Both the position numbers and the translations under genes were made by a program. Positions 27,423-47,335 of a DNA stretch of 64,000 nucleotides are shown here, one piece after another. The stretch comes from Bacillales bacterium (GTDB lineage: Bacteria > Bacillota_I > Bacilli_A > RF39 > UBA660). The stretch's first letter is position 1, and the number at the start of each line of letters is the position of its first letter. The stretch lies in NCBI GenBank assembly GCA_016282375.1, contig JAEEKI010000012.1, positions 6,254-70,253 on the forward strand. Direction: 5' to 3'. The notes under the pieces are model-generated. The model saw only the letters and a program-made list of their open reading frames with translations. It had not been told where the DNA came from and ran no database searches.

Positions 27423-28574
27423 TTATTTTTTCTTTTCTAATTGACGAATCTTATCTAAGGTAGCATTATTATAACATTCATTAAAATTAAAAGTCTTTAA
27501 ATTGGTATCTACAAAAGATAAAGTAGCTTTAACAATCGTTGGTATAAAGAAAATCATCGCTCCTACAAATACTTTAGTTAGGAAAAGTCCAGTGGCCTTT
27601 TTAATATCTTCGTCATATAGAATGGTTTTAGAAAAAGATATGATACTCGTAATAATAATGATTACCGGTACAAGGATTTTTACTACTTGAATAATTGTTT
27701 TGACAATATATATAGCTCTTAAAGCATTTGGATTTTGGCAAAGAGGTGTATTGGTAGTAGTCGTATAACCACTTCCTGAACTGCCTTGATTACCACTTGA
27801 ACTACTATGACTTCCACTATTGCCTGATCCTTGATTGGTTGAACCGCTGTTACCATTACTAGAACCATGATTATTGCCACTTGAGCCTTGATTATTAGAG
27901 CCACTACTAGATCCTTGATTTCCGCTACTAGAACCCTGATTGTTATTATTACTATGTTGGCAGATTGTGCTAGTAGTATAACTAGAATAATCACTCTTTC
28001 GTAAGGAAGCCGCCAACTGACGATAATGATCTGCTGAAGTAGATGATAATGCATTGCCCATCGTATCTTCATTTGATAGAGAACCACTATAACCAAAATA
28101 AACCGCTTCACTACAATTTAAACATGTTGCTTTTACCGAGGTCCAAACAATACCACCCCATGGCTCAATATCCCATGGATCAGCTTGGAAAATCATTTCT
28201 TTAGGCACCGTAAATTGACCAGATAAAACTAGTTCCGCGATATAAAGTAATTTAGCTTGTTCACTCGCAGGTACATAATTTTCAAAAGGCACCGTTTTAT
28301 ATGTTGAATAACCACCATAATCACTATTAGTTAAATTATACATCTTATCAATAAAAGTAACGCCACTCTTTCGATTAGCGTTATTTAAAACGACACTAGC
28401 GGTAACTAATTTGGCAAAAAAATCTTCATCAGGGTCATTATTAATTGTTCCCCCAACTTCACGATAGATAATTTTGGCCATTTGTTCAACAGTACTTTCG
28501 GTACAATAATCACTTGCGGATACATTATCTATCAAAAGAAATAAGCCTAATATAATAAACAATACTTTTTTCAT
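27423..28574 (-). CDS. Secreted SleB/cell-wall-hydrolase-like domain, G/S/N/Q low-complexity linker, then a C-terminal two-TM hairpin
   Basis: Signal peptide MKKVLFIILGLFLLIDNVSA. MAKIIYREVGG...AKLVTASVVLNNA resembles the Hydrolase_2 (SleB) motif. About 90 aa of low-complexity region. The C-terminus carries two hydrophobic helices. Confidence 0.6.
   Translation of the reverse strand: MKKVLFIILGLFLLIDNVSASDYCTESTVEQMAKIIYREVGGTINNDPDEDFFAKLVTASVVLNNANRKSGVTFIDKMYNLTNSDYGGYSTYKTVPFENYVPASEQAKLLYIAELVLSGQFTVPKEMIFQADPWDIEPWGGIVWTSVKATCLNCSEAVYFGYSGSLSNEDTMGNALSSTSADHYRQLAASLRKSDYSSYTTSTICQHSNNNNQGSSSGNQGSSSGSNNQGSSGNNHGSSNGNSGSTNQGSGNSGSHSSSSGNQGSSGSGYTTTTNTPLCQNPNALRAIYIVKTIIQVVKILVPVIIIITSIISFSKTILYDEDIKKATGLFLTKVFVGAMIFFIPTIVKATLSFVDTNLKTFNFNECYNNATLDKIRQLEKKK
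27760..27960 (-). repeat. Low-complexity imperfect repeats encoding (G/S/N/Q)n
   Basis: Encodes NNNNQGSSSGNQGSSSGSNNQGSSGNNHGSSNGNSGSTNQGSGNSGSHSSSSGNQGSSGSG. Confidence 0.8.
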
Positions 28575-31708: not shown

Positions 31709-31776
31709 TTTTCTCACCTGCCTATAGTTTATCACAAAAAAAAACTATTAGGAATACCTAATAGCCTTTAATTATA

Positions 31777-32325
31777 CTATATTCTTTGTAATTTAGTCTT
31801 TTTCTTTGTAGCGAAGTATACACCAACAGCAAGTACTGCACCACCAGCAATGATAGCATATGGAATGCTTACACCAGTTTCAGGAACAATCTTGCCTTCA
31901 GCACCTTTGTAAGTGTATTTGATAGTACAATCCTCATCAGGAGCATTCTTATTAACAACTACAGTGATTGTACCAACTTGGATTTCAGAACCCTTACCAG
32001 GATCAGCCTCAGATGCCGTAAAAGTACAAGCAGCACCGGCAGCAGCATTAGTTTGAGAAGCAGTAAATTTACCTGCATCGCCACAAGTGAAAGATTTAAT
32101 AGCAGGTCCGTAACTAAATGTAATTTCAACCTTTGTGAAATCAGCAGTAGCTTCACTTCCAGTATTGTTTAATGAAACAGGATAATAATAAGTCATTGTC
32201 CCATCGCCATTATCAACTTTCTTTGATGGTTCACTAGGTAAATATGCAGCACTCGCAGCAAAAGTATCTAATGGATACATAAGAAGCACTCCCAATACTA
32301 ACAATAATGCTAAGACTTTCTTCAT
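31777..32325 (-). CDS. Small surface protein with a sortase-type sorting signal (VPETG)
   Basis: Signal peptide MKKVLALLLVLGVLLMYPLDTFA. C-terminus KIVPETG-VSIPYAIIAGGAVLAVGVYFA-TKKKTKLQRI, i.e. motif, hydrophobic helix, basic tail. Start at ATG 32325 after GGAGAG. Confidence 0.7.
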   Translation of the reverse strand: MKKVLALLLVLGVLLMYPLDTFAASAAYLPSEPSKKVDNGDGTMTYYYPVSLNNTGSEATADFTKVEITFSYGPAIKSFTCGDAGKFTASQTNAAAGAACTFTASEADPGKGSEIQVGTITVVVNKNAPDEDCTIKYTYKGAEGKIVPETGVSIPYAIIAGGAVLAVGVYFATKKKTKLQRI

Positions 32326-32456
32326 AATCAACACTCTCCTATCTTTATTATGTCTTAATTATATCATAAAATTCTAAAAATCAATATGTTTTTTAAAAAA
32401 AAGTATTAATTGGTGTAAAGGTGTGTTATCATATTAATATAAGATGGTGGTTGAAA

Positions 32457-34016
32457 GTGAAAATCCTTGTAAAAATTAAAGATGATAAACTTTCATTTTT
32501 AAACAAGAAAAAGTTAAATGTTGAATATAAAAATATGTTAAATACTAATGTTATCAGCAATGATGAATTAGTTTTTAGTGATGAGTATATCCAAAAGAAT
32601 TATAAAATTCTTTCGGCTTTTTTTAGTGAATTAACTAACACTTATAATATTAACGTTTTGTCTTTTCAAACCATGGAAGTTGCTCTATTAATAATGCCTA
32701 TTTTTAATAAGATAAAAAATATTAATGCTATTTATTTTGATTCTGATGAAGTACTCCCCTATAAAGTATGTGAAAAGTTATTAAAATGTAATAATATTAC
32801 CTATATTAGTGCGGGATATATTCCTCAATATATGTTTGAATTACTAGACAAATATGATATTATTCCAGAATCACGAAATGAAATACTATATACTTCAGGT
32901 TTTATGGAACTTAACGGACTATCAACCTATTCTACTTTGTTTTATAAATATAGTGTTTTGTTAGATAGTCCTATCACAAACGAAGATTTAAATGACTTTA
33001 CAACTTTTTGTAAGATTAACAAATATCTTAAAAATGTCCATATTAATAAGCCAACTAAAATTAATCTAGAAAAGATTATCTTTATTCTTAAAGAATATCG
33101 CCATAAAAACATTCGAATCATTATTCATGGTGATACTATTGATGAAGAAGTAATTGAATATTTAAAAAAGTATAATAAATCTATTAAGAAAAAATATAAA
33201 ATATTAATTAAAATAAAATATAGTGAAAAATTTATCGAAGAAAATATTGTTAATGAAACCAATAATACTATTCTAAGAGCATGCGCACTCATTATGTTCT
33301 TCCTGGCTTTTGGATCAATTGGTATGGTCTTTATTGATAATTATAAATCCATCAAAGAAGTATCAAAAATTCAAAAGGCGATTGAAACATATATTGTCGC
33401 TTCGGATACCGAAGAAATAACTAAAGAATTACAAAAGCAAACCACTACACCTATTAAAAATAGTTATATAGCCGCTTTAATGAACATTAACTCAGATGCC
33501 GTTGGTTGGTTAAAAGTAAATAATACTAATATTGATTATGCAATTTTACAATCTGGCGATAATAGTTATTACCTAGAACACAATATTTATAAAGAAAAAG
33601 ATCCTAACGGATGGTTATTCTTAGATTATGAAAATAATGCAGACCGTGTAGATGATAATATTATTATATATGGACATAATCGTCTATTAAACGGAGTTAT
33701 GTTTGGAACACTAAATAAAGTATTATATAAAAGTTGGTACACCAATCCTGAAAATCAAATTATCAGATATGATACCCTTTATGGTTCATATGAATATCAA
33801 ATATTCTCTATCTATGTTATTCCAACCACAAATGATTATTTGAAAACAACTTATTTAAATGATGATGAAAAAATGGAATTCTTCAATCTTATTAAAAATC
33901 GTAGCATCTATAATTTTGATGTAGAATTAAACAATGATAGTCAAATTATTACTTTACAAACATGTCATGATGAAACAACAAAATTAGTTGTTCATGGTGT
34001 ATTAGTTAAAAGATAG
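32457..34016 (+). CDS. Class-B-sortase-like transpeptidase with a ~290-aa N-terminal cytoplasmic extension
   Basis: C-terminal domain NIDYAILQSGDNSYYLEHN...IIIYGHNRLLNGVMFGTL...IITLQTCHDETTK matches SrtB His and TxC motifs. TM helix ILRACALIMFFLAFGSIGMVFI precedes it. The start is uncertain: GTG 32457 after GGTGG, or the track start at 32421. Confidence 0.7.
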   Translation: MKILVKIKDDKLSFLNKKKLNVEYKNMLNTNVISNDELVFSDEYIQKNYKILSAFFSELTNTYNINVLSFQTMEVALLIMPIFNKIKNINAIYFDSDEVLPYKVCEKLLKCNNITYISAGYIPQYMFELLDKYDIIPESRNEILYTSGFMELNGLSTYSTLFYKYSVLLDSPITNEDLNDFTTFCKINKYLKNVHINKPTKINLEKIIFILKEYRHKNIRIIIHGDTIDEEVIEYLKKYNKSIKKKYKILIKIKYSEKFIEENIVNETNNTILRACALIMFFLAFGSIGMVFIDNYKSIKEVSKIQKAIETYIVASDTEEITKELQKQTTTPIKNSYIAALMNINSDAVGWLKVNNTNIDYAILQSGDNSYYLEHNIYKEKDPNGWLFLDYENNADRVDDNIIIYGHNRLLNGVMFGTLNKVLYKSWYTNPENQIIRYDTLYGSYEYQIFSIYVIPTTNDYLKTTYLNDDEKMEFFNLIKNRSIYNFDVELNNDSQIITLQTCHDETTKLVVHGVLVKR

Positions 34017-34090: not shown

Positions 34091-34390
34091 TTATTTAGGA
34101 GTTTCATTATTAACGGAACCAAATTGATTAATTAAATTATTAAGTTTTCCCTTAAATGTTGTTTCTTCTTCATCAACAAATCCCTTATAAAAGACTTTTT
34201 CAATTTGATTATGGTCAAACATACAAGTTTGATTTGATGCCATTAATCCTTCTGGATAAATGCATCCGCAGTAATCAAAAATCTTTCCTTCCTTACCTTT
34301 AGCCATCGCACAAAAGCCAATAATCATGACCCGTTTCTTTCCACCATTTAGTAAGACAACAGTACCAATCGGTAAAAATCTTTCTTCCAT
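34091..34390 (-). CDS. DUF4176-family small protein (commonly found in T7SSb loci)
   Basis: MEERFLPIGTVVLLNGGKKRVMIIGF...FDYCGCIYPEG fits the DUF4176 pattern (LPlGSvV.L...lmIigr...yDY.g..yPeG). Start at ATG 34390 after AAGGAGG. Confidence 0.7.
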   Translation of the reverse strand: MEERFLPIGTVVLLNGGKKRVMIIGFCAMAKGKEGKIFDYCGCIYPEGLMASNQTCMFDHNQIEKVFYKGFVDEEETTFKGKLNNLINQFGSVNNETPK

Positions 34391-34422
34391 AATTTCCTCC
34401 TTTATATTACTCTTAACAACCA

Positions 34423-36246
34423 TTATTGTTGGTTTTCTTTTTTAGATTCTTCTTTATCTTCTTCAGAATCTTTTTCATTTTTATATTTATTTATTCCATA
34501 TGCTGATGCTGTAGCTGCACCCAATGCAATTCCGCCAATACCAATTGGAGTATCATCAAACTCAGATGTCTTAATTTCCTCAGTTGTAGTGATTTCTTCC
34601 TTTGGCTCACTACCTACTATACCAGAAAGTGGTGTAATATTAACAGATTCAATTCCTTGATTAGAAACTGCATCTAGACTACCAGGAACAGTCGTATCTG
34701 GCATTACTGGAATCTTAACCGTTGTTGGTTTAAGATCAAATTCATAAATTGGTTCTGCAATTACTTCATTTGGATCTACATATTCTGGTTGAGAATCAAT
34801 TACTGGTTCAGGATATGTAATGGTACCGCCACCACCAGGTAAATAAATTTCATCACTATAATTATTTGAATATCCAGTCGGTGTAATATCAATACTCTCA
34901 GGGCCTGCATTAATCACAGTTACATTTGGATCGGTTAATTGCTCATCTTCAGGTGGTAATTCTTCACTAGCCTCTCCTGTTTCAGCCGGTGGAGTCAAAT
35001 CCTCTTGCTCATCTTCAGATGCTAAATCATCGATATCTTCAGGTTCGTCTGTTATAATTTCTGAATTACCTTCCTCAGGTGGAACAAATACATTTTCTTC
35101 ATCCGAAGAATTATTGTCTTCTTCTTCGTTATGACTATCTTCTAAAGAATCTTCTACAGGAGGACGCCCTGATTCTACCACTGTATAATTATAATTAACC
35201 GCATCAGTAATATGACTACCATTAGCCCCCGTCATACTCGTCAACTCACCAATAAATGTCGCACCAGTAACACCACCATAAGCAATTACACTTACTGTTG
35301 TACCCCAGTCTACTTGAGATGAACTTATTTGATCTAACACACTATGAATAGCATCTTCATTAGTTAAATCAACCCATACAGCTTGCATCTCACCTTGTTC
35401 AGTATTGGTATATATAATGCCTGTTGTATATCCTTCTTCATCATTATGAAGATCATTTAATATTGTTGATAATTGATCAACAACAGTTTGCGTATATTTT
35501 TCAGTTTCATTTGTATCTGGTAAAACTGGTTCTAATTCTATTACTGGTTCTATAACAGTATCAACACTTGGTGTATAACTACCAGAATCACCACCAAAAG
35601 AACCATTATCTATATATCCATTATCACTGGTAATTGGTAACTCTACTCCACTATCACCAATAATTGGTAAAATTGGAGCAATAACTGGCTCAGTGGATGG
35701 ACTAGAATTATCAACAGTAACATAAGGATTTTCTCCAACATAACCACTAGGATAAGCTCCTTGATCATCCGAAGGCGCTGGTGGAAAACCAGTACCATCA
35801 AAACCTTCATTAGAACTCTCATAGTATGGCATTCCATAATATTCGCTAAGCCATCCAACTTCTCTTAGTATCATTTTTGCATAGTCGTCTAGGTCAGCTG
35901 CTGTTTTACGATACTCAGTCAATTGATCAGAAATACCAGTTTCACTATTTTTTAACAATTTTAGAGGTCCTTTTTTAACTCTTTCATAAAAATTAGGTGT
36001 TATCTCATCTAATAATTCATCGTATTCATTAGCATTGTAGTTACATGACTCTAGAGACTCAGCCATTTTCTCTAAATAGGTGCAAAACTGCATAAATTTT
36101 TCTTTATCCATTGATAAAGATGAACCACCACCACCAAAAGTAATCGAATTGCCACTAACACTTGGATAACTGTTAGCATCAAGTGCAAACGGATTACTCA
36201 CAGTGGAATCAGCTACAGCCGATGAAGAATTGTCAATATCTGTCAT
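34423..36246 (-). CDS. Orphan 607-aa protein: helical N-domain, long acidic Pro/Glu/Asp-rich region, C-terminal tail-anchor TM
   Basis: AAGGAGG SD. C-terminus PIGIGGIALGAATASAYGI followed by a K/E-rich tail. No family recognised. Lies in the T7SS-like operon. Confidence 0.7.
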   Translation of the reverse strand: MTDIDNSSSAVADSTVSNPFALDANSYPSVSGNSITFGGGGSSLSMDKEKFMQFCTYLEKMAESLESCNYNANEYDELLDEITPNFYERVKKGPLKLLKNSETGISDQLTEYRKTAADLDDYAKMILREVGWLSEYYGMPYYESSNEGFDGTGFPPAPSDDQGAYPSGYVGENPYVTVDNSSPSTEPVIAPILPIIGDSGVELPITSDNGYIDNGSFGGDSGSYTPSVDTVIEPVIELEPVLPDTNETEKYTQTVVDQLSTILNDLHNDEEGYTTGIIYTNTEQGEMQAVWVDLTNEDAIHSVLDQISSSQVDWGTTVSVIAYGGVTGATFIGELTSMTGANGSHITDAVNYNYTVVESGRPPVEDSLEDSHNEEEDNNSSDEENVFVPPEEGNSEIITDEPEDIDDLASEDEQEDLTPPAETGEASEELPPEDEQLTDPNVTVINAGPESIDITPTGYSNNYSDEIYLPGGGGTITYPEPVIDSQPEYVDPNEVIAEPIYEFDLKPTTVKIPVMPDTTVPGSLDAVSNQGIESVNITPLSGIVGSEPKEEITTTEEIKTSEFDDTPIGIGGIALGAATASAYGINKYKNEKDSEEDKEESKKENQQ

Positions 36247-36258
36247 TTTTACCTCCTT

Positions 36259-37800
36259 TTATTTTTTTGTTTTAATAGAAGTTCTATTACTTGTCAAATT
36301 ATCAGTTGAAATAAATACTGATCGATCTTCAGAACTATCAATACTTAAAGTACCTGCAACAGTATCAACTGCATAATATCCATCAACAGTACCATCATAT
36401 ACTAAATAGCATCCATTCGAACCACCCTTTATTGTCGTGTTAAATGCACTATAAGGTTTATCATATACGACCTCTGTTCCTGGAGCTATATAAATTATTT
36501 TTGGCAATTTTTCTTGACCAATACTTACTTTATCCCAATGAATTTCACTTTGAGCTGTTGCATTGCTTCGCAAGAAATTAGTATCATATACCCGATGTTC
36601 ATTATCACGATATTTGGCAAAAACAGTATCCGCCCAACCAACATTTTTGTTATTTTTAACATCACACGCTGTTGATCCGACACTATCAAAAGGAAAATCA
36701 GTAGCATATGTAACACTATAAGAATTTCCACTATAACAATATGTTTGAAGGAATTCCTCTCGACCAGGAATGTCTGTACCTCCATTACCATCATAAACTA
36801 CACGAGGAGCTAATGTACCACTACTATTCAAATAAAAAACTTGATCATATGGACTAGTTCCCTTTGTAAAATACATTGTACCGCGCGCATCTCGCATTAA
36901 GAAATAACAAGTCTCGCCATTTATAACCACTTGTGTACCACATGTAATGGTCTTTGGAGAATAAGTAAAATATTCTTCATAATTATCATAGTATGCCAAA
37001 TCAGCAGAACCTGCATTTTTTCTTCTTGTAAATTCACTTCTAGTCATTAAATTAGAGAATGCTTTATATGTGGCATCATCGTATTTATGGCTACTTGGTT
37101 TAACATTTTCACCATTGATACCCGCATTATTATCATAACTAGGTACATAATTGTCAGCTTGAAGGCGGCAAATACAATAGTCAACACCATATACACCATT
37201 TTGGTAGCCATAAGCAATATTATAATTTGGATATGGACAATTATTGGAATATTTTAAATATTTTGAAGATTCATTAAAATAAATAGAACCTACTCCGCCT
37301 TCAGGATCGGTTTTCTTAGCAATTCGAATCATTCCATCGCTTGTACGCTCAAAATCGGTATATCCATCAGATCTTAAGTTATCCTCCACAACAGAGCAAA
37401 ACTTTTTAAAATATTTATCGTACCAATCTTCTAAATCTTCTTTAACTTCTTTATCAAACATATCTAGTTTAGTTTCATCTAACGGCTGATTTGTCTGAAG
37501 AGTTAAATCAAAATTAGAACCAGTACCATTCAATTTAGAACGCAAATCATATAAATAATCTGCAAATGGGTTTCGACCATTAACTAACAAAGATTCTTCA
37601 CATATGTTAATACAACTGTCAAGATACTCAATTGCTTCATATAAACTATTTTTAGCTTTTGATTCAACATCCCAAGCAGTATTAGCCAATTGATTATGCG
37701 CTACATATTTGTCTTTTTCCAAGATATAAAATGGACGTTCCGTCGAAGACTGTGCTGCATCTTTCAATTGAATCAACGTCATACTGTCGTATCTACTCAC
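36259..37800 (-). CDS. Orphan 513-aa soluble protein (helical N-terminal ~150 aa plus unknown C-domain)
   Basis: GTG start 37800 after AAGGGTGA. No TM segments. First gene after the esx-pair terminator hairpin. Confidence 0.7.
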   Translation of the reverse strand: MSRYDSMTLIQLKDAAQSSTERPFYILEKDKYVAHNQLANTAWDVESKAKNSLYEAIEYLDSCINICEESLLVNGRNPFADYLYDLRSKLNGTGSNFDLTLQTNQPLDETKLDMFDKEVKEDLEDWYDKYFKKFCSVVEDNLRSDGYTDFERTSDGMIRIAKKTDPEGGVGSIYFNESSKYLKYSNNCPYPNYNIAYGYQNGVYGVDYCICRLQADNYVPSYDNNAGINGENVKPSSHKYDDATYKAFSNLMTRSEFTRRKNAGSADLAYYDNYEEYFTYSPKTITCGTQVVINGETCYFLMRDARGTMYFTKGTSPYDQVFYLNSSGTLAPRVVYDGNGGTDIPGREEFLQTYCYSGNSYSVTYATDFPFDSVGSTACDVKNNKNVGWADTVFAKYRDNEHRVYDTNFLRSNATAQSEIHWDKVSIGQEKLPKIIYIAPGTEVVYDKPYSAFNTTIKGGSNGCYLVYDGTVDGYYAVDTVAGTLSIDSSEDRSVFISTDNLTSNRTSIKTKK

Positions 37801-37816
37801 TTTTTATCACCCTTTC

Positions 37817-37871
37817 TAAAAAGTATATTGTAAATAAAGAACATATTGCATTTCTTTACTTACAATATACT
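37817..37871 (-). terminator. Strong hairpin (20-bp stem) plus U-run between the WXG100 pair and downstream genes
   Basis: Minus strand AGTATATTGTAAGTAAAGAA-ATGCAATATG-TTCTTTATTTACAATATACT-TTTTT, with one G-U pair. A second small hairpin TGCATAGAAATATGCA lies just upstream. Confidence 0.7.
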
Positions 37872-37914
37872 GCATATTTCTATGCAATATATTTTTTTAC
37901 AATTAAACCAACAT

Positions 37915-38220
37915 CTATGGATTTGTTGGTGTAGCATTGGCCATTTCTTGTTGAGCCTTTTTAAATTCGTTATTAGCATATTCAATTTGATCTTGAACAG
38001 TAAGAACGTGTCCAAGTTGACTTCTAAAACTATCAGTAAAATTGTACCAAGCTCTTATAAAGCCTTCTGCTGCAGCTCCAGTCCATTCACCAGATGTTCC
38101 GATTTTACCTTCAATATCAGCTGTTAAACGATTAAAATCTTCAGTCATTTTATCAGCTAAATCAAGAACATTTCTAGCTTTCTCTGTAGCAGCCGCATAA
38201 TTTATATACTCTCTATCCAT
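37915..38220 (-). CDS. WXG100-family protein (EsxB-like partner)
   Basis: 101 aa helical hairpin with a central W-x-G (SGEWTGAAAEGF). GGAAGGAG SD. Confidence 0.8.
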   Translation of the reverse strand: MDREYINYAAATEKARNVLDLADKMTEDFNRLTADIEGKIGTSGEWTGAAAEGFIRAWYNFTDSFRSQLGHVLTVQDQIEYANNEFKKAQQEMANATPTNP

Positions 38221-38241
38221 TATATTTATCTCCTTCCATTA

Positions 38242-38529
38242 TTACATATAGTTTTCAATATTTCTTGTCGTATCATCACCAATATCTGCAACAATACCAA
38301 GAGATTTTCCATAAGTAGATAATTCACCAGCAAATCCCTCAATACTTGCCTTATTAGTATAATAAGAGTTTTTGAAAGCATTATAAGTTCTACCATTCCA
38401 ATCGCTTTCTAAACCATTTACAAGACCTGTTAATTCCTCAATTTTTGCTAAATATTGCTCAGCAGCATCATAAATATCCTGAGCAGTATTACGAATTTTT
38501 TCTGTTACATAACTAATGTTATCGCTCAT
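38242..38529 (-). CDS. WXG100-family protein (EsxA-like)
   Basis: 95 aa with a central W-x-G (ESDWNGRTYNAF). GGGAGGTG SD. Directly downstream of esaB/essC. Confidence 0.85.
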   Translation of the reverse strand: MSDNISYVTEKIRNTAQDIYDAAEQYLAKIEELTGLVNGLESDWNGRTYNAFKNSYYTNKASIEGFAGELSTYGKSLGIVADIGDDTTRNIENYM

Positions 38530-38542
38530 TCTTTCACCTCCC

Positions 38543-38797
38543 TCACATTATAATCAATTTGGCTCCGTTTAAGATTCTATTTTCCTTTACGGTTTTATTG
38601 ACATCATAAACAGAACCGGTAAATCCATCAACTAATGATAGTTCTTCATTAATAGGAAAACTCCCTGAACTAATATCATTAATGGCTTTGTTTAATAAGA
38701 ATATAATTTCAATAGTCTTTTTATTGACCGGAATAAATACATTGTATTGTTCTTCAAGGGCAGGAACTATAACATCAACATTTACTTTATTTTTCAT
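38543..38797 (-). CDS. esaB: EsaB/YukD-like ubiquitin-fold T7SS protein
   Basis: 84 aa. The size, the VDVIVP...YNVFIPVNKKT...GAKLIIM beta-grasp pattern and the position next to essC all fit. Confidence 0.7.
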   Translation of the reverse strand: MKNKVNVDVIVPALEEQYNVFIPVNKKTIEIIFLLNKAINDISSGSFPINEELSLVDGFTGSVYDVNKTVKENRILNGAKLIIM

Positions 38798-38806
38798 AAT
38801 TCACAC

Positions 38807-41800
38807 CTATAACATTTCTTCTTCCGAATCATAACTTTCGACATATTTGAATAATGTTGGAATACCAGAAACAATGTTATAGCCAAAGTTATTTGGAATA
38901 TTATTAGGTAAAGATCGCGTACTAGCAAATAACTTGAATATACTTTGTTCTGCTAGACCATTACCAATCCAAATACCCCTTGTACTATTTACAATATCCT
39001 TATACCATCCATCATACTCTAGTTTCTTTAAGTTGTCAAACGTATCGACAATCACATAACTTATCTTTGATAACTTTTTCGAGTTCATTAAAGTACTGCC
39101 TACAAGGCTATCAAATTCAATACCAAGAATTGTTTTAATCTTGTTAATACCGGTAATAACCACTACCATATTGCCATAATTCTTTAAGGCATCATTATCA
39201 TACCCATTCTTAACGTAAATATCATTTAAACCATCAACAGTAGTTTTAAAACTAGCAAATACCTTATCAAAAGAACTAGTATACAATTTAGCATTTCCTG
39301 ATACATCACTTACTAATTTTTCGGCATCTATAACACAAACGACAGTATTTTTGATTGTTGACATTTCGTGCACGAACACGTTTACAAATTTTTGTAAACT
39401 ATTGATTTTAGTTGCAGATATCACAATAGAAGTTTGATTCTTTACATCTACTGAAAGAATATTTAAATTCTCTTTAGCAACACCAATTGGTACTTGATGA
39501 AGGCCCATAAATTCTGAAGATACAAACGAAGTAGTAACTTTATCTGGTAAAGTAGGAATTCTTTCTGCTTTCTTAGTATAAAGAGTATTTAAATTAGTAA
39601 TTGTTTTAGCAATAAAATCCGGTATTTCTGCTGTCTCTGTTGGATAGGCAGTTTGAAATTCATAAATACCCTCTCTTTTAGCAAGACCTCGACCAAATAT
39701 CTTACTTGGCAACACTTCACTTCTTCCCAATAATTGACGATAATCAAATTCATCGTTCATTTGTAAAACTAATTTTTCATTAAAGTTTTGAGCAACTTTC
39801 ATTCGAATATTACTTGCTGCACTAACAGTTGTTACAAACAATAATCCGTATTTTACACCTTCTCTTGTTAAGAGAATAATATCATCGGCAAAATCAGGAT
39901 ACAATTCATTAAATGATTCATAACCATTTATAATAGTAATAATAGTTGGTAACGTTTTACCACTGTTCTTACAATAATAATCATAACTTCCATTATAATC
40001 AGCAAATAGTTTTTTTCTATCAGCCATTTTCTTTTGCAGTAAACGGAATAATGTCATAAGTTGATCTTTGTCATCAGCTCCGACAATCCCACCAACATGT
40101 GGTGCTTTAGAATACATTCTCAAAGCTTCTGTACCAAAATCTAAAATATATATATTTATTTCATCTACACTATATGTAGTTATTAATGAATAAACAAGCG
40201 TAGACATTAAGTTTTCTTTTCCACTACCAATTGAACCATAAACTAATAAGTTTCCACTTTGAGATAGCGGTAAAGTTAATAGATTTTGTCTTTGTTCTTT
40301 TGGAGCATCATATTCACCTATAACAGGATTTATAACAAAAGGTACTTTGTTATAACGATATTTCTTTTTTAATACATCCACAAAGATATTAGCAGGAATT
40401 GGATCAAGCCATAATTGACGAACATCAATTTGTTCTTCATATCCCAAATCAGCTAGATAATTTAGAATACTCGTTACTTCTTCGCCTTTATGTACTCCTC
40501 TTAAATTTTGTTTATCATTATCAATACTTTTGATGCGTTCACCAATATTATCAACGAAATTAATAGAATTATCCACAATCTTCTTTCGCTTTTCAGATTC
40601 ATAATAAGGAGCTCCACACCAAGCAGATTGACCCTTAGCAAAGAACTCATTAAAGCCAACTTGAAGATAAAAACGACCAGTTTCTTTTAAGTAAGCGGCA
40701 TCCGGTGATTTAATCATATCATTACTATCTGACTTATCTTGAACTTTTAAACATACTCTAAATTTTGAGTTAGACCAAATCTGTTCATCAACAACACCAC
40801 TTGGTTTTTGAGTAGCTAAAATTAGATGGACACCTAATGAACGACCAATACGAGCCGTAGATATCAACTCATCCATAAACTCTGGTTGTTGAGCTTTTAA
40901 TTCTGCAAATTCATCAGATATAATAAACAAATGAGCAATTGGTTCTTTTACTTTACCCTCACGATATAATTTTTGATATTTATAAATATCAATCGTGCTT
41001 TCATTACAGGCATCACGAGCTTCATTAAATATTCTTTGCCGTCTTTTCAATTCACTTTGTAATGATGATAAACTCCGATTAATTTCATTTACATCAAGAT
41101 TGGTTATGGTACCTGCCAAATGTGGAAGTTTAACACCTGTTTCTTTGTTTTCAAAAGCTCCAGCTAAGCCACCACCTTTGTAGTCAATAAGTACAAATTG
41201 GACTTCATAAGGATTATAATTAACAGCCATTGACAATATATAAGTAATGATAAATTCAGATTTACCTGAACCAGTCATACCTGCGATAAGGCCATGGGGA
41301 CCATGCACCTTTTCATGTAAATCTATTTTAAATAATTCACCATTTTCATTAATACCTACCGGACAAGAAAGCGAAGTTGTCGGATCATTTTTTTGCCACC
41401 TGTTGTAAGCATTTAATTGCTCAACATTTCCTGCATTGTACATCTCTAAGAAGGTATATAAAGTTGGAAGTTCAAAAGCTTTATCGCGGGTTTCAATTGG
41501 TATATTAGAAGTAGCATATACATACCTATCAATGGTTTTGTTAATAAAGTCAGGAATAAATTCTTGCTTTTTATTAACTAATTCATTTTCGAAAATACCA
41601 CCAACCGAAGCATCAATACTAATGAATGTTGAACATTCACTTGGTAAAGAATTTAATTTATCAGTTAAATATAAAATGGTAAAACCATTAGATCGACCAG
41701 ATTTTAAGATATCATTAATTATACCTAATCTATTTGTTATATATACATCATCAGTAATAATGACATAATGTGGAAAAAATCTCGTCTTTTTTTCCGAATC

Positions 41801-43423
41801 TTGACCAGATCTATTTTGCCATTCATTTTCTAGTTCTGATGACACTCTAACAGCTTCATCAGAATCAGTAGCAAAATATCTAACAGTCTTATCATTATTC
41901 CAACAATACGGAGAATTTTTTAATTTTTCCCAATAAGAACGATTACTGTCATTAGTAAAGATGGCAATCTTTAATTCATCATATGAATGATATGCTAACA
42001 TCTGAAGAATCAATCCATCCGTATATCTTCTTAAAAGGTCAAATTTACCAATCAAAGCAGTGATATTTTTTTCTCGAAAATTCATGGTAACTGGAACATC
42101 GACAAGGGTATTATTCTTTTTAATAATGGAACGTAATTCTTCCTCTAAATCATCAGATTCCAATTCAAAATGTTCAGGAGCATAATTAATGTTTAATTTT
42201 GGTTCCACACTACCTATTCCTAAACGCAAATTTAGAAAATCATCATGTGTAACCTTTCTTTCCCAAAGATTTCTCTTACGATATAAAATAACATCGCCAA
42301 CATTATCTAAACTAACATTATTTTCAATTAAAACTCTTTTTTGATAAGTACATTCATCAATAATCTTTTTATCCAAGTCTTGTAAATAAGCATGGTATTT
42401 TTCTTGTCTTAACTTCTCTTTTTGCCGTTCTGTTTTCTTTTGATAAGCCCGATTTGCCATAGGAAAAACGAACATTGCAACAATCATACAAAAAGCTGTG
42501 ATTATTGAAGTAAAACTTTCTTTAAAGCTAGCCTCCCCAGAAAGAACTTTTGTTAAAGCCATGACACCTGTTATCGAAGAAGTCATTCCCATAATTACCA
42601 TCGGTCCAAGTGTCAAAATAATCGGGAAATCCTCACTTTCTTGCTTACGTGGAGGTCCATCAACATCAATATCTTTTGTTTCTAAAACATTACTAAAACG
42701 AGGCGGTCTAATAAAATAATCACTTTTTGAAAACAATTCTACACTTGCATCAGTTATTTTATCAACAGAGGCATAATCTAATTTATTAACTTTGTGACCA
42801 GCAAACTTATTAGTAACATATTTTACTTTATTTTCAACCGTACCTAGCATCAAAATGTTACCCACAATAGAAAAAGTTAAGCCTTCAAGAAAAACTACAT
42901 CGCCATTTTTTAAATAACAACTATTTGTAAGATAATTATTTACATAAACGTTCACACTAGGATTGAGATTTGTTAATCGACATATGCCATTTGAACGAAC
43001 AATTTCAATTTGATTATAATGAACATCAGGGTTTTCATAAGAAATATAATTGGGTTGTCCGCCTTCATTCGAGGAAGAATTACCAATGTAAAAAGTTAAA
43101 TCTCCAGTCTCAATAAAGTCTAACAAAAGCATTTTACTGTCGAATGTTTCACCAACAAAAACGCGGTATTTTTCACCACTTGCAACATCCACAAAATAAT
43201 AAAAATGATTTTCCACTAATTCGATATTATCGATAACTCTCCCATTATCTACAATTTTTATATCATCATTACTTTTGATAAACCATTTATTATTTAAGGC
43301 TTCAATATTAACTAGATTTTCATTATTCTCATTAGTTATCCAATAATTACCATAAATTCTTTGGGGTAATATGGTATTAACTAACTGGGTTTTTCCGATT
43401 AATCTAACTTTCACACTAAACAC
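38807..43423 (-). CDS. essC: T7SSb FtsK/SpoIIIE-family ATPase EssC/YukB
   Basis: 1538 aa. FHA-like N-terminus, two TM helices, three tandem FtsK-like modules. D1 has Walker A GMTGSGKSE and Walker B LFIISDEFAEL. The start may be GTG 43414. Confidence 0.93.
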   Translation of the reverse strand: MFSVKVRLIGKTQLVNTILPQRIYGNYWITNENNENLVNIEALNNKWFIKSNDDIKIVDNGRVIDNIELVENHFYYFVDVASGEKYRVFVGETFDSKMLLLDFIETGDLTFYIGNSSSNEGGQPNYISYENPDVHYNQIEIVRSNGICRLTNLNPSVNVYVNNYLTNSCYLKNGDVVFLEGLTFSIVGNILMLGTVENKVKYVTNKFAGHKVNKLDYASVDKITDASVELFSKSDYFIRPPRFSNVLETKDIDVDGPPRKQESEDFPIILTLGPMVIMGMTSSITGVMALTKVLSGEASFKESFTSIITAFCMIVAMFVFPMANRAYQKKTERQKEKLRQEKYHAYLQDLDKKIIDECTYQKRVLIENNVSLDNVGDVILYRKRNLWERKVTHDDFLNLRLGIGSVEPKLNINYAPEHFELESDDLEEELRSIIKKNNTLVDVPVTMNFREKNITALIGKFDLLRRYTDGLILQMLAYHSYDELKIAIFTNDSNRSYWEKLKNSPYCWNNDKTVRYFATDSDEAVRVSSELENEWQNRSGQDSEKKTRFFPHYVIITDDVYITNRLGIINDILKSGRSNGFTILYLTDKLNSLPSECSTFISIDASVGGIFENELVNKKQEFIPDFINKTIDRYVYATSNIPIETRDKAFELPTLYTFLEMYNAGNVEQLNAYNRWQKNDPTTSLSCPVGINENGELFKIDLHEKVHGPHGLIAGMTGSGKSEFIITYILSMAVNYNPYEVQFVLIDYKGGGLAGAFENKETGVKLPHLAGTITNLDVNEINRSLSSLQSELKRRQRIFNEARDACNESTIDIYKYQKLYREGKVKEPIAHLFIISDEFAELKAQQPEFMDELISTARIGRSLGVHLILATQKPSGVVDEQIWSNSKFRVCLKVQDKSDSNDMIKSPDAAYLKETGRFYLQVGFNEFFAKGQSAWCGAPYYESEKRKKIVDNSINFVDNIGERIKSIDNDKQNLRGVHKGEEVTSILNYLADLGYEEQIDVRQLWLDPIPANIFVDVLKKKYRYNKVPFVINPVIGEYDAPKEQRQNLLTLPLSQSGNLLVYGSIGSGKENLMSTLVYSLITTYSVDEINIYILDFGTEALRMYSKAPHVGGIVGADDKDQLMTLFRLLQKKMADRKKLFADYNGSYDYYCKNSGKTLPTIITIINGYESFNELYPDFADDIILLTREGVKYGLLFVTTVSAASNIRMKVAQNFNEKLVLQMNDEFDYRQLLGRSEVLPSKIFGRGLAKREGIYEFQTAYPTETAEIPDFIAKTITNLNTLYTKKAERIPTLPDKVTTSFVSSEFMGLHQVPIGVAKENLNILSVDVKNQTSIVISATKINSLQKFVNVFVHEMSTIKNTVVCVIDAEKLVSDVSGNAKLYTSSFDKVFASFKTTVDGLNDIYVKNGYDNDALKNYGNMVVVITGINKIKTILGIEFDSLVGSTLMNSKKLSKISYVIVDTFDNLKKLEYDGWYKDIVNSTRGIWIGNGLAEQSIFKLFASTRSLPNNIPNNFGYNIVSGIPTLFKYVESYDSEEEML

Positions 43424-43438
43424 CCTATTCTATAGAAA

Positions 43439-43467
43439 ATTATACCGTAATTTGCTATTTTATACAA
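43439..43467 (-). promoter_or_regulatory. Candidate promoter for essC
   Basis: Minus strand TTGTAT (43462-43467), 17 nt, TATAAT (43439-43444). Located just after a hairpin terminator (about 43469-43495). Confidence 0.45.
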
Positions 43468-43498
43468 GAAAAAAAGATGTATTTAGCATCTTTTCATC

Positions 43499-44782
43499 TT
43501 AATTACTACAAGAATAATTTTTCGTATTTACATAGTATGAATTAATCGCCGTATAAGTCTCTGATAATGTTTCATTATTCTCCGCTTTTAACTGCTCATT
43601 ATCTAGTTTAGCTACTAAACTAATAGTCTTATTAATTGTATCCATGATAAAGTACCCGCTTCGACCATCGATTGTAATCCGATTGTTCTCGATATTATTT
43701 AGAGCATTTTCAAAAGCTAATTCATCATCATATTGATAATTATACAATCGTAACGAATAATCTAGATTTTTACGGTTTTCATCAAAAACAAAATAATCAG
43801 TTACACTATAACCATAATCAGTTTTATTTGTAGTCTTACTTGTGCAACTTAAACTCATCGCTGGTGCTTTGTCAACCACATATAAAACAGCATAACCAAG
43901 TTTTTCGCTTCCACTGGAATGACTAACAGAAATACTGATACCATATACGCCATTTGATTTAACATTATCTTTTAGCGAAATGTTATCGGTTAAGTATTCG
44001 TATTCATTACTTGTTAAAACAAACTCATCAATTTCTGGTATGTCATTAATTTTCTTATAAACAACTTTTGTAGCAAAACTTATCTCAGGAATAGATAAAA
44101 CTTCTATTTTCGCACTATGTTTAGTACTTCCACACTTTACGGAATAATTATATGTTCCTGGTGTACTAGCATCAATACTATCTAAACCCGTAATTAAACA
44201 AGAAGAAATGTCGATTTTAGAAAAATCTCCATAATCATTAATATTATGTGATATAGTATCACCTACATAGATAGTTACATCTTTCAATGTAAATATTTTA
44301 TGATTCTTTCTAGCTAATGATAAATAGAAATATAAACCATAAGCAACGCCACCCATTAAAAGTAAAATAATCACAGCAAAAATGACTTTCTTTAATGTAT
44401 CATGTGGTTTTTTATCAGGATTTGGCGTCGTACTTTTCTTCTTTTTACCTTTCTTATTCTTTTTATCATCTAAAGGCTCAATCGGTTGAGGTGTTGGTTC
44501 AGGTTGCACCCCAGGTGTTGGTTGCATTGGTTGAGTTTGAGGCGGTACTGCGCTCTCTTGTGGGCTTGGTACATTAGTAACAGCCCCAGTTTGATTGATG
44601 GCAGGAACAGAATTTGTACCTGAGGAATTAACACTAGCGTTTTCAGGATTTGCGGTATTCGCAGCATTGGCACCATCAGATGTTGGTTCAAGTAACGGCA
44701 AAAAGTCAAGGGTATCAATAACCTCGATAGTTGTTGGATCTGTGCCAATATCACTAATCTCATTTGGAAAAACGTTATTCAT
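43499..44782 (-). CDS. Orphan type-II membrane protein (Pro/Thr/Gln-rich disordered N-terminus, K-rich patch, one TM, ~260-aa outer domain)
   Basis: AAGGGGA SD. TM VIFAVIILLLMGGVAYGLYFYL near residue 150. No family recognised. Confidence 0.7.
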   Translation of the reverse strand: MNNVFPNEISDIGTDPTTIEVIDTLDFLPLLEPTSDGANAANTANPENASVNSSGTNSVPAINQTGAVTNVPSPQESAVPPQTQPMQPTPGVQPEPTPQPIEPLDDKKNKKGKKKKSTTPNPDKKPHDTLKKVIFAVIILLLMGGVAYGLYFYLSLARKNHKIFTLKDVTIYVGDTISHNINDYGDFSKIDISSCLITGLDSIDASTPGTYNYSVKCGSTKHSAKIEVLSIPEISFATKVVYKKINDIPEIDEFVLTSNEYEYLTDNISLKDNVKSNGVYGISISVSHSSGSEKLGYAVLYVVDKAPAMSLSCTSKTTNKTDYGYSVTDYFVFDENRKNLDYSLRLYNYQYDDELAFENALNNIENNRITIDGRSGYFIMDTINKTISLVAKLDNEQLKAENNETLSETYTAINSYYVNTKNYSCSN

Positions 44783-44852: not shown

Positions 44853-46598
44853 TTACTTTAATACTGCTTTAATACGTCTAACACCTGATGATGAACTTTC
44901 TTCCTTTATAATCTTAAATGTCCCTAAAACGGAAGTGTTTGCCACATGAGGGCCACCACATAATTCTTTTGAAATATCCCCTATACTATAAACAGTAACT
45001 ACATCAGGATACTTTTCAATAAACATACACTCTGCCCCGGATTTAATAGCTTCTTCCTTAGGCATTTGCTCGCACTTGACATCCAAGCCTTCCTTAATCC
45101 AATTATTAACAATTGTCTCCGCTTGATTTAACTCTTCATCACTTAGCTTATGATCACATGAAAAGTCAAAACGCATTCTTTCATCAGTAATATTTGAACC
45201 TTTTTGATGAACTTCAGGGCCAACAACTATTTTTAAGGCAGCATTTAATAAGTGTGTGGCCGTATGATATTTAGTCTCGACTTCTGAATTGCCTGCTAAT
45301 CCACCTTTAAACTTACCTGCTGAGGCAGTTCGAGATTTTTCTTGATGTTCTTTAAACATTTTTTCATAGCCTTCTTCATCAACAGACAAATTATTTTCAC
45401 TAGCTAATTCTTTAGTAAGTTCTAATGGAAAACCATAAGTATCAAATAAATGGAAGGCAACTTCACCAGTAATATTCTCCCCATTTTTAGTAAATTCACT
45501 AAATTTTCTCAATCCTTTTTCAAGGGTTCTTGTAAATTTAACTTTCTCAATAGCTAATTCTTTTAAAACAACTTCAGCATTATCTTTAAGTTCAACATAA
45601 TACTTATCATATTGATTAAGAATTATTTGAGCGATTTCACACTCCCATGAACTATTACTATCAATACCTAAAATTCTTGCATGCCTTATAGCCCGACGAA
45701 TAAGTCTCCTTAGAATATAACCTTGATCTGTATTACTTGGTTTAATACCAGCTGGATCTGCTAAAATAAAAACTGCTGTCCGAATATGGTCTGCAATGAT
45801 TCGCATACTTTTTTGATATTCACCAACATATTCTTTTTTAGAAAGTTCACATATCTTAGCAATAACATTTTGCCAAATAGAAGATTCATAATTATCTAAT
45901 TTACCTTCCAAAACCGAAGTAATTCTTTCTACTCCCATTCCTGTATCAACATTCTTCTTTGGAAGTTCAACAAATGTTCCATCACTTTTCTTTTCATATT
46001 GCATAAAGACATCATTCCAAATTTCTACCCAACGATTATCATCAGGATCAAATTCATCAGGAATAGCATCTTCACTACGAAAATAGAACATCTCACTATC
46101 TGGTCCACAAGGTCCAGTATCTCCGGCTATCCAAAAATTATCATCAACAGTCTTGGCGATTCTTTGGGGATTAATACCTAAAGAAATCCATTTATTATAT
46201 GATACTTCATCAAATGGAATATTATCATTACCTGCAAAAACAGTTACAGCTAGTCTTTCAACAGGAATGTTTAATTCTTGCGTTAAGAATTCAAAACTCC
46301 AAGATATAGCTTCTTCTTTAAAATAATCACCTAAAGACCAATTACCAAGCATTTCAAAAAAAGTATGATGAGTTTTATCACCAACTGAATCCAAATCAGT
46401 AAGTCTAATACATTTTTGATAATCACACAATCTTGTTCCATATGGATGCTTTTGACCCATTAAATATGGAATTAAAGGCATCATACCAGCTGTATTAAAT
46501 AAAACACTAGGATCGTTTTCAGGTACAACAGGTGCACTTGGAATTTGTTTGTGTCCCTTTTTAGTAAAAAAATTAATGTATAAGTCTTTTATGTTCAT
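44853..46598 (-). CDS. alaS: Alanyl-tRNA synthetase, short form (catalytic, tRNA-recognition and editing domains; no C-Ala domain)
   Basis: LFNTAGMMP, DTGMGVERI, RRLIRRA, editing-site HTATHLLN and CGGPHV. The ORF ends at 581 aa, right after the editing domain. Confidence 0.88.
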   Translation of the reverse strand: MNIKDLYINFFTKKGHKQIPSAPVVPENDPSVLFNTAGMMPLIPYLMGQKHPYGTRLCDYQKCIRLTDLDSVGDKTHHTFFEMLGNWSLGDYFKEEAISWSFEFLTQELNIPVERLAVTVFAGNDNIPFDEVSYNKWISLGINPQRIAKTVDDNFWIAGDTGPCGPDSEMFYFRSEDAIPDEFDPDDNRWVEIWNDVFMQYEKKSDGTFVELPKKNVDTGMGVERITSVLEGKLDNYESSIWQNVIAKICELSKKEYVGEYQKSMRIIADHIRTAVFILADPAGIKPSNTDQGYILRRLIRRAIRHARILGIDSNSSWECEIAQIILNQYDKYYVELKDNAEVVLKELAIEKVKFTRTLEKGLRKFSEFTKNGENITGEVAFHLFDTYGFPLELTKELASENNLSVDEEGYEKMFKEHQEKSRTASAGKFKGGLAGNSEVETKYHTATHLLNAALKIVVGPEVHQKGSNITDERMRFDFSCDHKLSDEELNQAETIVNNWIKEGLDVKCEQMPKEEAIKSGAECMFIEKYPDVVTVYSIGDISKELCGGPHVANTSVLGTFKIIKEESSSSGVRRIKAVLK

Positions 46599-47119
46599 TG
46601 TAGTGTCTCCAAATATTTAAATACCTTATCTCTTAAACTCTCTAATGTATCATTAGCTAAAGTATAATCAAATTCATCATAATTCTCTAATGCTGTTTCG
46701 GTAATATGTGATTGTTGTTCTAATGAAAGTGTACTATTGCCAAATTGATTAACAACGTAAATAGCATAAACTTCATCATAGTTTTCTTTAATTTCTTCGA
46801 TTTCTTCAGGCATTCTAACATCAGCAATTACTAAATCACTAACGTATTCTTGATATATTGAAATATCTTTAATCATATTCGAAGTTAAAAAATAAGGATC
46901 TTTCCTACGAATTTTATCACCTAGTTCTTGCATAAAATCACGTGGCTTGTTAGCATCTGTTCCATCCCAATCCGTTAGTTCTCTAGCAAATTGTTTAATA
47001 TATTTACTATAACTTGTAATAGCACACTCCTCAAGTTTGTATGTATAATACTCCTTTATTAATTTGGCTACTTCTCCTTTTCCACTTCCTGCTTTACCAG
47101 CAACTAAAAATATTCTCAT
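46595..47119 (-). CDS. P-loop kinase resembling phage-type dNMP kinase (T4 gp1-like)
   Basis: MRIFLVAGKAGSGKGEVA Walker A. LVIADVRMPEEIEEI and SHITETAL resemble the gp1 motifs DTRQ...E and THITE. Start set at ATG 47119; the track's upstream extension is T-box RNA. Overlaps the alaS start. Confidence 0.55.
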   Translation of the reverse strand: MRIFLVAGKAGSGKGEVAKLIKEYYTYKLEECAITSYSKYIKQFARELTDWDGTDANKPRDFMQELGDKIRRKDPYFLTSNMIKDISIYQEYVSDLVIADVRMPEEIEEIKENYDEVYAIYVVNQFGNSTLSLEQQSHITETALENYDEFDYTLANDTLESLRDKVFKYLETLQ

Positions 47120-47124
47120 ACTCT

Positions 47125-47335
47125 CTTCCTTTCTTAAAAAATAAAAAGGATAATACCAAGGAGCCAAATCGGCGGTACCATCCTTTATTTTACTTTATAG
47201 TTTTATAGGTCTTCACCATTTAATCTTCGAAAGCAGCAAACATTAAATAATATTTATTCTCTTTCACCAATTAAGAACTCTCTTTAAAATATTATTAAAC
47301 ATCATCTTTCATCAACAATTACATCTATAGTTTAA
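47125..47335 (-). promoter_or_regulatory. T-box leader (probable Ala specifier GCU) with terminator/antiterminator
   Basis: The minus strand carries an AGAGAG/GGUGAAAGAGA stem-I-like region. UUUGCUGCUUUC lies at 47229-47240. The T-box sequence AAAGGAUGGUACCGCC lies at 47171-47186. The terminator AAAGGAUGGUACC...GGUAUUAUCCUUU plus U-run lies at 47136-47186, just before the SD of the kinase gene. Confidence 0.75.

Follow-up and report, generated by a model that had tools for sequence, protein, structure and literature searches.

In four canonical type VII secretion system b (T7SSb) loci, used here as references (Listeria L084, B. mycoides L085, L. fermentum L086 and Enterococcus L088; L numbers designate the compared loci), the genes esxA, esaA, essA, esaB, essB and essC are contiguous. 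Eight further type VII secretion system (T7SS) variants, designated T7SSc-j and described from RefSeq genomes, lack EssA, EssB and EsaA (Garrett, Higginson & Palmer 2024, PMC11217815). All of them share TsxC and a WXG100 protein (TsxA) and, except for subtype d, a YukD-like protein (TsxB); the same survey pointed out that neighbourhood analysis can miss components (PMC11217815). Here, we analyzed a gene cluster on the minus strand of contig JAEEKI010000012.1 of a Bacillales bacterium (assembly GCA_016282375.1), lying within a window of 64,000 nucleotides, by which we mean the whole stretch of DNA studied. The cluster combines genes for an EssC-type ATPase, a YukD-like protein and two different WXG100 proteins with a DUF4176 gene and three orphan genes, whose products of 427, 513 and 607 amino acids (aa) are referred to as p427, p513 and p607.

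We regard it as fairly likely that this is a functional EssC-driven secretion locus of the type VII class, with a reduced A1/A2-B-C layout, belonging to an uncultured clade of gut Bacilli with a low GC content, and that the three orphans are one surface protein of the chromosomal backbone and two cargo proteins. Judged from its sequence, the locus appears to hold the broad T7SS core of EssC ATPase, WXG100 pair and YukD-like protein, the last one weakly and at the level of the family. The initial annotation of this DNA had proposed either a minimal EssC/EsaB core or the replacement of the missing membrane components by non-homologous orphans, and held that both options would be new biology. This was overstated, since Bacillota T7SS devoid of EssA, EssB and EsaA have already been published (PMC11217815).

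The secretion core and the missing membrane components

The essC gene (38807-43423, minus strand) encodes an FtsK/SpoIIIE-type secretion ATPase of 1538 aa, which scored 1025.5 bits against TIGR03928 (NCBIfam T7_EssCb_Firm; cut-off 778.4) and matched PF01580 (E 1.7e-46) as well as TIGR03924 (E 4e-107) and TIGR03925 (E 4e-71). Membrane segments and ATPase domains accompany the FHA region at the N-terminus, and the Walker A motifs are canonical. A frameshift in essC had been considered in the initial annotation; the gene proved to be a single uninterrupted open reading frame (ORF) in a genome of 30% G+C, and its product aligned end to end with those of 80 relatives. The D1 region is 94-97% identical to that of the closest relatives, versus 67-72% for the whole protein. 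Translation probably starts at GTG 43414 rather than at the first in-frame GTG (43423), giving a protein of 1535 aa, because the consensus of the family begins with MKI.L and an AGGGTG Shine-Dalgarno sequence is placed 6 nt upstream. The profile of the first 235 residues matched the FHA domains of Ki-67 (E 2.8e-6), Rv1747 and Dun1, and also the EssC of G. thermodenitrificans (5FWH, E 4.8e-5). Inspection of the FHA region revealed Asn (IGN) in place of the canonical phosphothreonine-binding Arg and no S-x-x-H motif. The same replacement of Arg by Asn is present in the non-phospho-binding FHA domains of T7SSb.

The 84-aa protein encoded next to essC (38543-38797, minus strand) is more divergent. 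When the protein was analyzed alone, Pfam gave no match, and a PDB sequence-profile search with its family did not find YukD. At the family level, PF08817 (YukD) was weakly matched by 20 of 39 members (best E 3.8e-4), a hidden Markov model (HMM) of EsaB built from the four canonical loci matched members of the family with a best E of 7.8e-5, and hhalign aligned almost the entire family profile with canonical EsaB, the D(L/I)xIP motif included, with a probability of 64% and an E of 6.7e-5. The family adjoins essC in 77 of the 80 related loci. We have accepted the protein as a divergent EsaB/YukD-like one, on the grounds of family-level sequence similarity, size and position.

The two WXG100 genes lie further downstream on the same strand. 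The 95-aa product of the first (A1, WXG95; 38242-38529) has a W-N-G motif and matched PF06013 above the gathering score (E 4.5e-7, 30.5 bits) and TIGR03930 (E 6.9e-8). The 101-aa product of the second (A2, WXG101; 37915-38220), with a W-T-G motif, matched PF06013 below the gathering score (E 8.5e-4) and TIGR03930 with an E of 1e-6; its C-terminal Y-A-N-N-E conforms to YxxxE, and it is the probable heterodimer partner of WXG95. A WXG100 pair was also found in another subgroup of loci (clusters c11/c8), the one further pair that was scanned. Three close relatives (L003, L004 and L006) carry a second WXG100-like pair (clusters c10 and c7) after the DUF4176 gene, which suggests repeated cargo modules and has no counterpart in the window.

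An EssC search of one genome per GTDB species yielded at least 80 related loci (80 listed), all of them from uncultured gut metagenome-assembled genomes (MAGs), mostly labelled Bacilli, of rabbit, Hadza people, ruminants, pig and mouse. Across the listed relatives, EssC identity runs from 72% down to 37%, and the closest canonical proteins (Listeria, Bacillus mycoides) are about 30% identical. After ORFs had been called and clustered in all loci, only EssC and the 84-aa family turned out to be near-universal; small helical proteins are common near essC, and the other neighbours vary by subgroup. Among the closest relatives, the EsaB-like protein is 85-86% identical. We found no description of a T7SS in these MAG lineages in the literature.

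No cluster protein matched the curated Pfam and NCBIfam models of EssB (PF10140, TIGR03926), EsaA or EssA at E <= 0.1, and the three orphans matched none of these curated collections. HMMs for EsaA, EssB and EssA were built from the four canonical loci, as for EsaB, and run on every stop-to-stop ORF of 40 aa or more, both in the window and in L001-L083, the flanks around essC amounting to 0.99 Mb in total, with at least 5 kb on both sides in 28 loci. EsaA gave nothing convincing (best E 0.0034, on a 164-aa ORF) and EssB gave nothing (best E 0.022). In leave-one-out controls, the EsaA and EssB models recovered orthologs of only 21-27% identity at E <= 5e-89 and E <= 7.5e-75, respectively. The EssA model found nothing under E 0.1, with a control that failed for one of the four sequences and was weak for another. 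The cluster is compact, with overlapping or tightly spaced genes and intergenic gaps of at most 114 bp, hence there is no hidden unannotated small gene in it.

Two kinds of candidates from the related loci were rejected. The EsaA-like protein of 884 aa with seven transmembrane (TM) segments near essC in L043, L052 and L080 is a Ca-type P-type ATPase, and the proteins of about 200 aa whose genes immediately precede essC in further subgroups (c12, c19, c49) are helical proteins without assignment or HPF, not T7SS parts. Since the HMM searches were negative both in the window and in the flanks of the relatives, with working controls, the lack of EssB and EsaA beside essC is, on this sequence evidence, a property of the lineage and not of the window alone. 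Hence, the absence of recognizable EssB and EsaA claimed in the initial annotation was confirmed for the locus. The minimal EssC/EsaB core is supported at the level of the locus, where the WXG100 pair belongs to it, and of at least 80 relatives, but not at that of the whole genome.

The locus resembles T7SSb in the score of EssC above the T7_EssCb_Firm cut-off, the FHA region, the YukD/EsaB-like protein and the WXG100 substrates, and also in the position of cargo and DUF4176 genes downstream of essC; in Listeria a DUF4176 gene directly follows essC. It differs from T7SSb in having no EsaA and EssB (and no EssA detected in the insensitive test), in two different WXG100 genes instead of a single esxA, in an EssC only about 30% identical to the canonical ones and in an EsaB-like protein too divergent for a direct Pfam match.

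Among T7SSc-j, the closest is the "simple" T7SSg, composed of TsgA1, A2, B, C and L; a non-identical WXG100 pair is found in T7SSg and in T7SSe. However, TsgC is devoid of the FHA region that this EssC has, and T7SSg includes TsgL, a DUF5050 beta-propeller protein, and adjacent Tad pilus genes, whereas no Pfam match to DUF5050 or a propeller was obtained among the cluster proteins. Subtypes c-f and h-j are defined by kinase, phosphatase, vWA, DUF6382-FHA, EspG-like and AAA+ (TsfV) components and by TsxI, a large protein rich in immunoglobulin (Ig)-like domains with a signal peptide. A Pfam scan of 18-20 cluster and neighbouring proteins revealed no kinase, PPM phosphatase, vWA, DUF6382-FHA, extra FHA, EspG-like or AAA+ match. 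A feature in common with T7SSc-j is that cargo is encoded with small helical partner proteins. The A1/A2-B-C layout with an FHA-bearing EssC thus appears to match none of T7SSc-j as published, when compared by description and not by tree. The survey of Garrett et al., based on RefSeq, did not sample these MAG lineages.

A comparable locus, annotated in RefSeq with only WXG100, EsaB/YukD, an FHA protein and EssC, is present in the culturable gut bacterium Agathobacter rectalis (L087; NZ_CP143948.1, 7426-11854). Over a distance of about 10 kb from this locus, our HMMs detected neither EsaA nor EssB, and no EssA was seen with the insensitive model. A. rectalis belongs to Clostridia, and it differs in that the FHA protein is encoded by a separate gene upstream of a shortened essC and in its Imm59 and other cargo/immunity genes. 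Its EssC is about 33% identical over 64% of the length.

The three orphan proteins

The p427 gene (43499-44782, minus strand) precedes essC and encodes, as had been noticed in the initial annotation, a TM protein. It has a disordered cytoplasmic N-terminus with a variable linker, a single TM helix (residues 127-157) in N-in topology and no signal peptide. Two tandem Ig-like (Rib-like) domains and a further unmatched domain form the ectodomain, modelled by AlphaFold2 (AF2) with a predicted local distance difference test (pLDDT) score of about 90. The family has only 15 members, which conserve the cytoplasmic N-terminal motif DIGTDPTxxxVIDSLD, KSTTPNPDKKP in front of the TM helix and four invariant Cys residues in the ectodomain; the N-terminal peptide looks like a docking motif by its sequence. 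Foldseek placed Rib, SraP and S-layer domains at the top of its matches, the first 50 of which included neither EssB nor YukC nor EsaA, and hhalign of p427 against EssB gave a probability of 0.9%, with the TM helix alone aligned. Ig-like domains are shared with TsxI, from which p427 differs, when compared by description, in its size of 427 aa, the lack of a signal peptide and the lack of linkage to essC.

The homologs of p427 are always encoded directly after alaS. The next gene is essC in L081, L092 and L093/L094 and other housekeeping genes in L082/L083 and L089-L091. Because of this constant position after alaS, with essC following in some loci only, p427 is an alaS-linked backbone surface protein beside a site where the T7SS cluster is present or absent; it is not a demonstrated part of the system.

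The p513 gene (36259-37800, minus strand) follows the WXG100 pair. Its product has an N-terminal three-helix domain of targeting-like appearance and a small beta domain, which a disordered linker connects to a C-terminal domain rich in beta structure (approximately residues 280-511). In the AF2 model, the helices comprise residues 29-70, 78-103 and 109-144 (pLDDT 60-75), and the C-terminal domain has a pLDDT of about 80. A word-indexed search with p513 retrieved no homolog, and an exhaustive HMMER search retrieved 18, a single one of them (P0018) full-length, at 41% identity. The last 230 or so residues recur as the C-termini of proteins of 404-808 aa whose N-termini, on inspection, mostly resemble WXG100/LXG; a WxG motif is visible in several and YD/RHS repeats in some. 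Pfam analysis of 15 proteins with this C-terminal domain confirmed WXG100 in one and RHS repeats in two. Residues 24-97 of p513 matched the small helical protein encoded in the same slot of L005 (E 8.5e-5). On the strength of this modular C-terminal domain, attached to proteins with different N-termini, p513 is a probable secreted effector of polymorphic T7SS architecture. In the public protein library, the only counterpart is a 262-aa protein identical to p513 residues 252-513, with no full-length entry, which suggests that, in the source assembly, the gene call was truncated or the gene lay in a fragment at a contig end.

The p607 gene (34423-36246, minus strand) comes next, and its stop codon overlaps the start of the 110-aa DUF4176 gene (34091-34423, minus strand; PF13780 E 1.7e-27, PDB 9DCS E 6e-11). 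The N-terminus of p607 appears helical by its sequence and contains neither a TM segment nor a signal peptide. Behind it lie a long, acidic spacer of low complexity, the conserved motif YxF(E/D) and, at the C-terminus, a zipper helix of the (G/A)xxx(G/A) type with a charged tail. No homolog of p607 reached database-wide significance, and a comparison of the N-terminus with PDB gave only noise. Approximately 250 C-terminal residues are common to the proteins of 783-868 aa encoded in the same slot of L001, L003, L004, L006 and L081. The shared module consists of the acidic spacer, NVGP..(V/I)D(V/I)TP, YxF(E/D), the zipper helix and the charged tail. These relatives contain an extra Gly-rich hydrophobic central region that p607 lacks; their C-termini are conserved and their N-terminal halves hypervariable. 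The content of the slot behind the WXG100 pair differs between close relatives; a gene of the p607/c23 type is present in every one of them, and most (not L005) keep the conserved C-terminal anchor.

The DUF4176 proteins of S. suis are encoded downstream of LXG effectors, bind the cognate effector specifically and stabilize it before secretion (PMC12482557). As with the DUF4176-chaperoned LXG1-CT3 of S. suis (PMC12482557), the gene of a small helical partner is succeeded here by that of a large effector, and the latter directly by a DUF4176 gene. In the T7SS effectors TelE (PMC10434224) and EsxX (PMC12258717), toxicity resides in a C-terminal glycine zipper, and the zipper helix near the C-terminal end of p607 is similar. 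Pfam analysis of 17 large proteins encoded beside DUF4176 genes in the related loci revealed one ADP-ribosyltransferase toxin domain and one CHAP domain, and no LXG domain in any of them or in p607. The translational coupling to DUF4176, the TelE/EsxX-like zipper and the ADP-ribosyltransferase and CHAP domains of large proteins encoded beside DUF4176 genes in related loci together point to p607 as a probable LXG-like, membrane-active effector and, by analogy with S. suis, to the DUF4176 protein as its probable cognate chaperone. It differs from LXG effectors in having no PF04740 match, no recognizable immunity gene, a long acidic spacer and a conserved C-terminus combined with a variable N-terminus.

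Altogether, these results do not support the proposal of the initial annotation that the three orphans replace the missing membrane parts. The position of p427, its Ig fold and the lack of an EssB or EsaA match make it a backbone surface protein. The effector hallmarks of p513, whose slot holds different genes in close relatives, and the DUF4176 coupling, TelE-like zipper and variable slot of p607 make both probable cargo. Among the loci compared, p427 is encoded without an adjacent essC in five loci and neither the p427 nor the p607 family is present in the other approximately 70 essC loci.

Flanking genes and putative regulatory sites

The minus-strand gene order proposed in the initial annotation was recovered ORF by ORF, as was its location between lysS (30221-31735) and alaS (44853-46598). 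The term accessory island fits in so far as the cluster is present or absent after the alaS-p427 pair across relatives; it does not fit the composition, since the G+C content of the cluster (0.30-0.34) and its skew are those of the rest of the window, with no island signature. The postulated sortase pair was reduced to a single sortase-domain protein of 531 aa (32421-34016, plus strand), with the domain at its C-terminus (PF04203, E 1.6e-12). The other protein, of 185 aa (31777-32334, minus strand), is encoded divergently from the sortase gene, ends with VPETG, a TM segment and KKKTK, and by this sequence is a probable sortase substrate rather than a sortase. The presence of both proteins implies a peptidoglycan wall in this reduced-genome organism.

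A strong hairpin between the WXG101 and p513 genes (approximately 37823-37870, minus strand) was confirmed, with a 19-bp stem followed by a U run. The intergenic segment 37801-37914 folds with -27.9 kcal/mol (z -4.99), and none of 200 shuffled sequences was as stable; the hairpin is probably a partial terminator or an mRNA-stabilizing element. The terminator and promoter reported in front of essC were upheld in part. The p427-essC boundary (43439-43498, minus strand) contains a weak terminator-like hairpin with a T run (-12.1 kcal/mol, z -2.2) and a -35 TTGTAT (43467-43462) separated by a 17-nt spacer from a -10 TATAAT (43444-43439), which is a consensus match only. A promoter/terminator scan found the region no richer in such sites than shuffled sequence, promoter-like sites occurring at chance frequency, and the regulatory reading thus comes from position only.

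Several observations concern the neighbouring genes. The AlaS of 581 aa represents the short form (NF002436/PRK01584 type), in which the C-terminal domain present in standard bacterial AlaS is missing, as fits a reduced genome. The start of alaS is overlapped by the gene of a 190-aa P-loop kinase-like protein (46595-47167, minus strand), syntenic in all relatives, which weakly matched DNMK, phosphomevalonate kinase and the N-terminus of an anti-phage dCTP deaminase model. Further on, two tandem paralogs of 599 and 586 aa (47361-49160 and 49227-50987, minus strand), almost identical over the first 230 or so residues, have an N-terminal hydrophobic anchor and no Pfam match; the close relative L081 is devoid of these genes between the BrkB-like gene and the kinase gene. 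Beyond lysS, a 383-aa protein (27423-28574, minus strand) has a signal peptide and C-terminal hydrophobic segments, together with a long stretch of low complexity rich in Ser, Gly and Asn; it gave no Pfam match at E <= 1e-3.

Competing explanations and the meaning of a reduced locus

The first question is whether the system is as small as its locus. Further membrane components encoded elsewhere in the genome, either EssB, EsaA and EssA or a membrane kinase and a TsxI-like wall-spanning protein, might assemble with this EssC. Only 64 kb of the genome was examined, components can escape neighbourhood analysis (Garrett et al.), and EssC retains the FHA region that in T7SSb binds the EssB pseudokinase (PMC11217815, PMC9600267). 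However, a distance of about 10 kb around essC yielded nothing of this kind in any of 80 related species, whereas the canonical loci are contiguous, and the 18-20 proteins scanned with Pfam included no kinase, phosphatase, vWA or extra FHA protein. We therefore consider this explanation unlikely, though it is the strongest of the competitors. A lower probability is given to the view that p427 and/or the tail-anchored proteins of the p607 type are lineage-specific structural parts, analogues of EssB/EsaA or of TsdH/TsdI, that link EssC to the envelope. In the window and in L001, L003, L081, L092 and L093, a p427 homolog is indeed encoded directly upstream of essC, and in L004 with one gene between. 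The conserved cytoplasmic motif combined with an Ig-like ectodomain is loosely reminiscent of the Ig-rich TsdI and the single-TM TsdH/TseK (PMC11217815), and the ubiquity of the p607/c23-type gene among close relatives, mostly with its anchor, would suit a structural role. Such a role is difficult to reconcile with p427 following alaS without an adjacent essC in L082, L083 and L089-L091, with the terminator-like hairpin and promoter-like site that separate p427 from essC, with the absence of both families from most essC loci and with a p607 gene coupled to an effector chaperone gene and hypervariable in its N-terminal half. Least probable by far is that a canonical T7SSb is decaying here and, after the loss of esaA, essA and essB, no longer secretes anything. 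This idea draws on the absence of three components that are essential in both S. aureus and B. subtilis, but a decaying locus would hardly keep a 1,538-aa ORF uninterrupted at 30% G+C with canonical Walker A, an almost invariant D1 region, a highly conserved EsaB in the closest relatives, a compact operon and the same reduced layout in at least 80 species-level MAGs.

The reading of the locus as a functional, reduced EssC-driven system with a backbone neighbour and two cargo proteins has its own weak points. Its function has been deduced from sequences and predicted structures. Beyond the 64 kb examined, the genome could contain partner genes, and the search for EssA was insensitive. An FHA region kept in EssC without the EssB pseudokinase, its usual partner in T7SSb, hints at a further partner of EssC. 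With respect to the cargo, the Pfam LXG model PF04740 matches neither p513 nor p607, Foldseek against PDB gave no significant fold match for the p513 model, including its C-terminal domain, and the stretch from the DUF4176 gene to the convergent sortase gene shows no obvious immunity gene. The p607 family keeps its C-terminus and varies its N-terminus, whereas classical LXG toxins do the opposite, and the C-terminal helix of p607 could be a plain membrane anchor.

In this reading, EssC multimers would form the membrane motor and channel, with the YukD-like protein docked on EssC. WXG95 and WXG101 would be co-secreted as a heterodimer, for which YxxxE of WXG101 would serve as the export motif, and the hairpin behind the WXG100 genes would lower the read-through into the cargo genes. 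The p513 protein would be exported via its N-terminal helical domain and deliver its C-terminal domain. The p607 protein would be held stable in the cytoplasm by the translationally coupled DUF4176 chaperone and, once exported, would act on membranes via its C-terminal glycine-zipper helix in the manner of TelE.

A broader possibility, which we put forward tentatively and hold to be somewhat doubtful, is that a radiation of uncultured gut Bacilli with reduced genomes, comprising at least 80 species-level MAGs, and possibly Agathobacter-like Clostridia, uses EssC, a YukD-like protein and a WXG100 pair as the only dedicated machinery, a true minimal T7SS and one more subtype besides T7SSc-j. If so, EssB, EsaA and EssA would be accessory adaptations outside the translocation mechanism, and the diversity of T7SS (c-j) would extend to uncultured gut lineages missed by RefSeq surveys. 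If EssC, the YukD-like protein and WXG100 suffice, they would constitute the simplest natural T7SS and a defined minimal set for reconstitution, and thus a route to what forms the channel of Gram-positive T7SS, a question that is open for T7SSb. The candidate new effector domains, i.e., the C-terminal domain of p513 and the p607/c23 family, may serve competition in the gut microbiome. The value of the locus lies in a possibly minimal natural T7SS and in new effector domains rather than in a new class of system.

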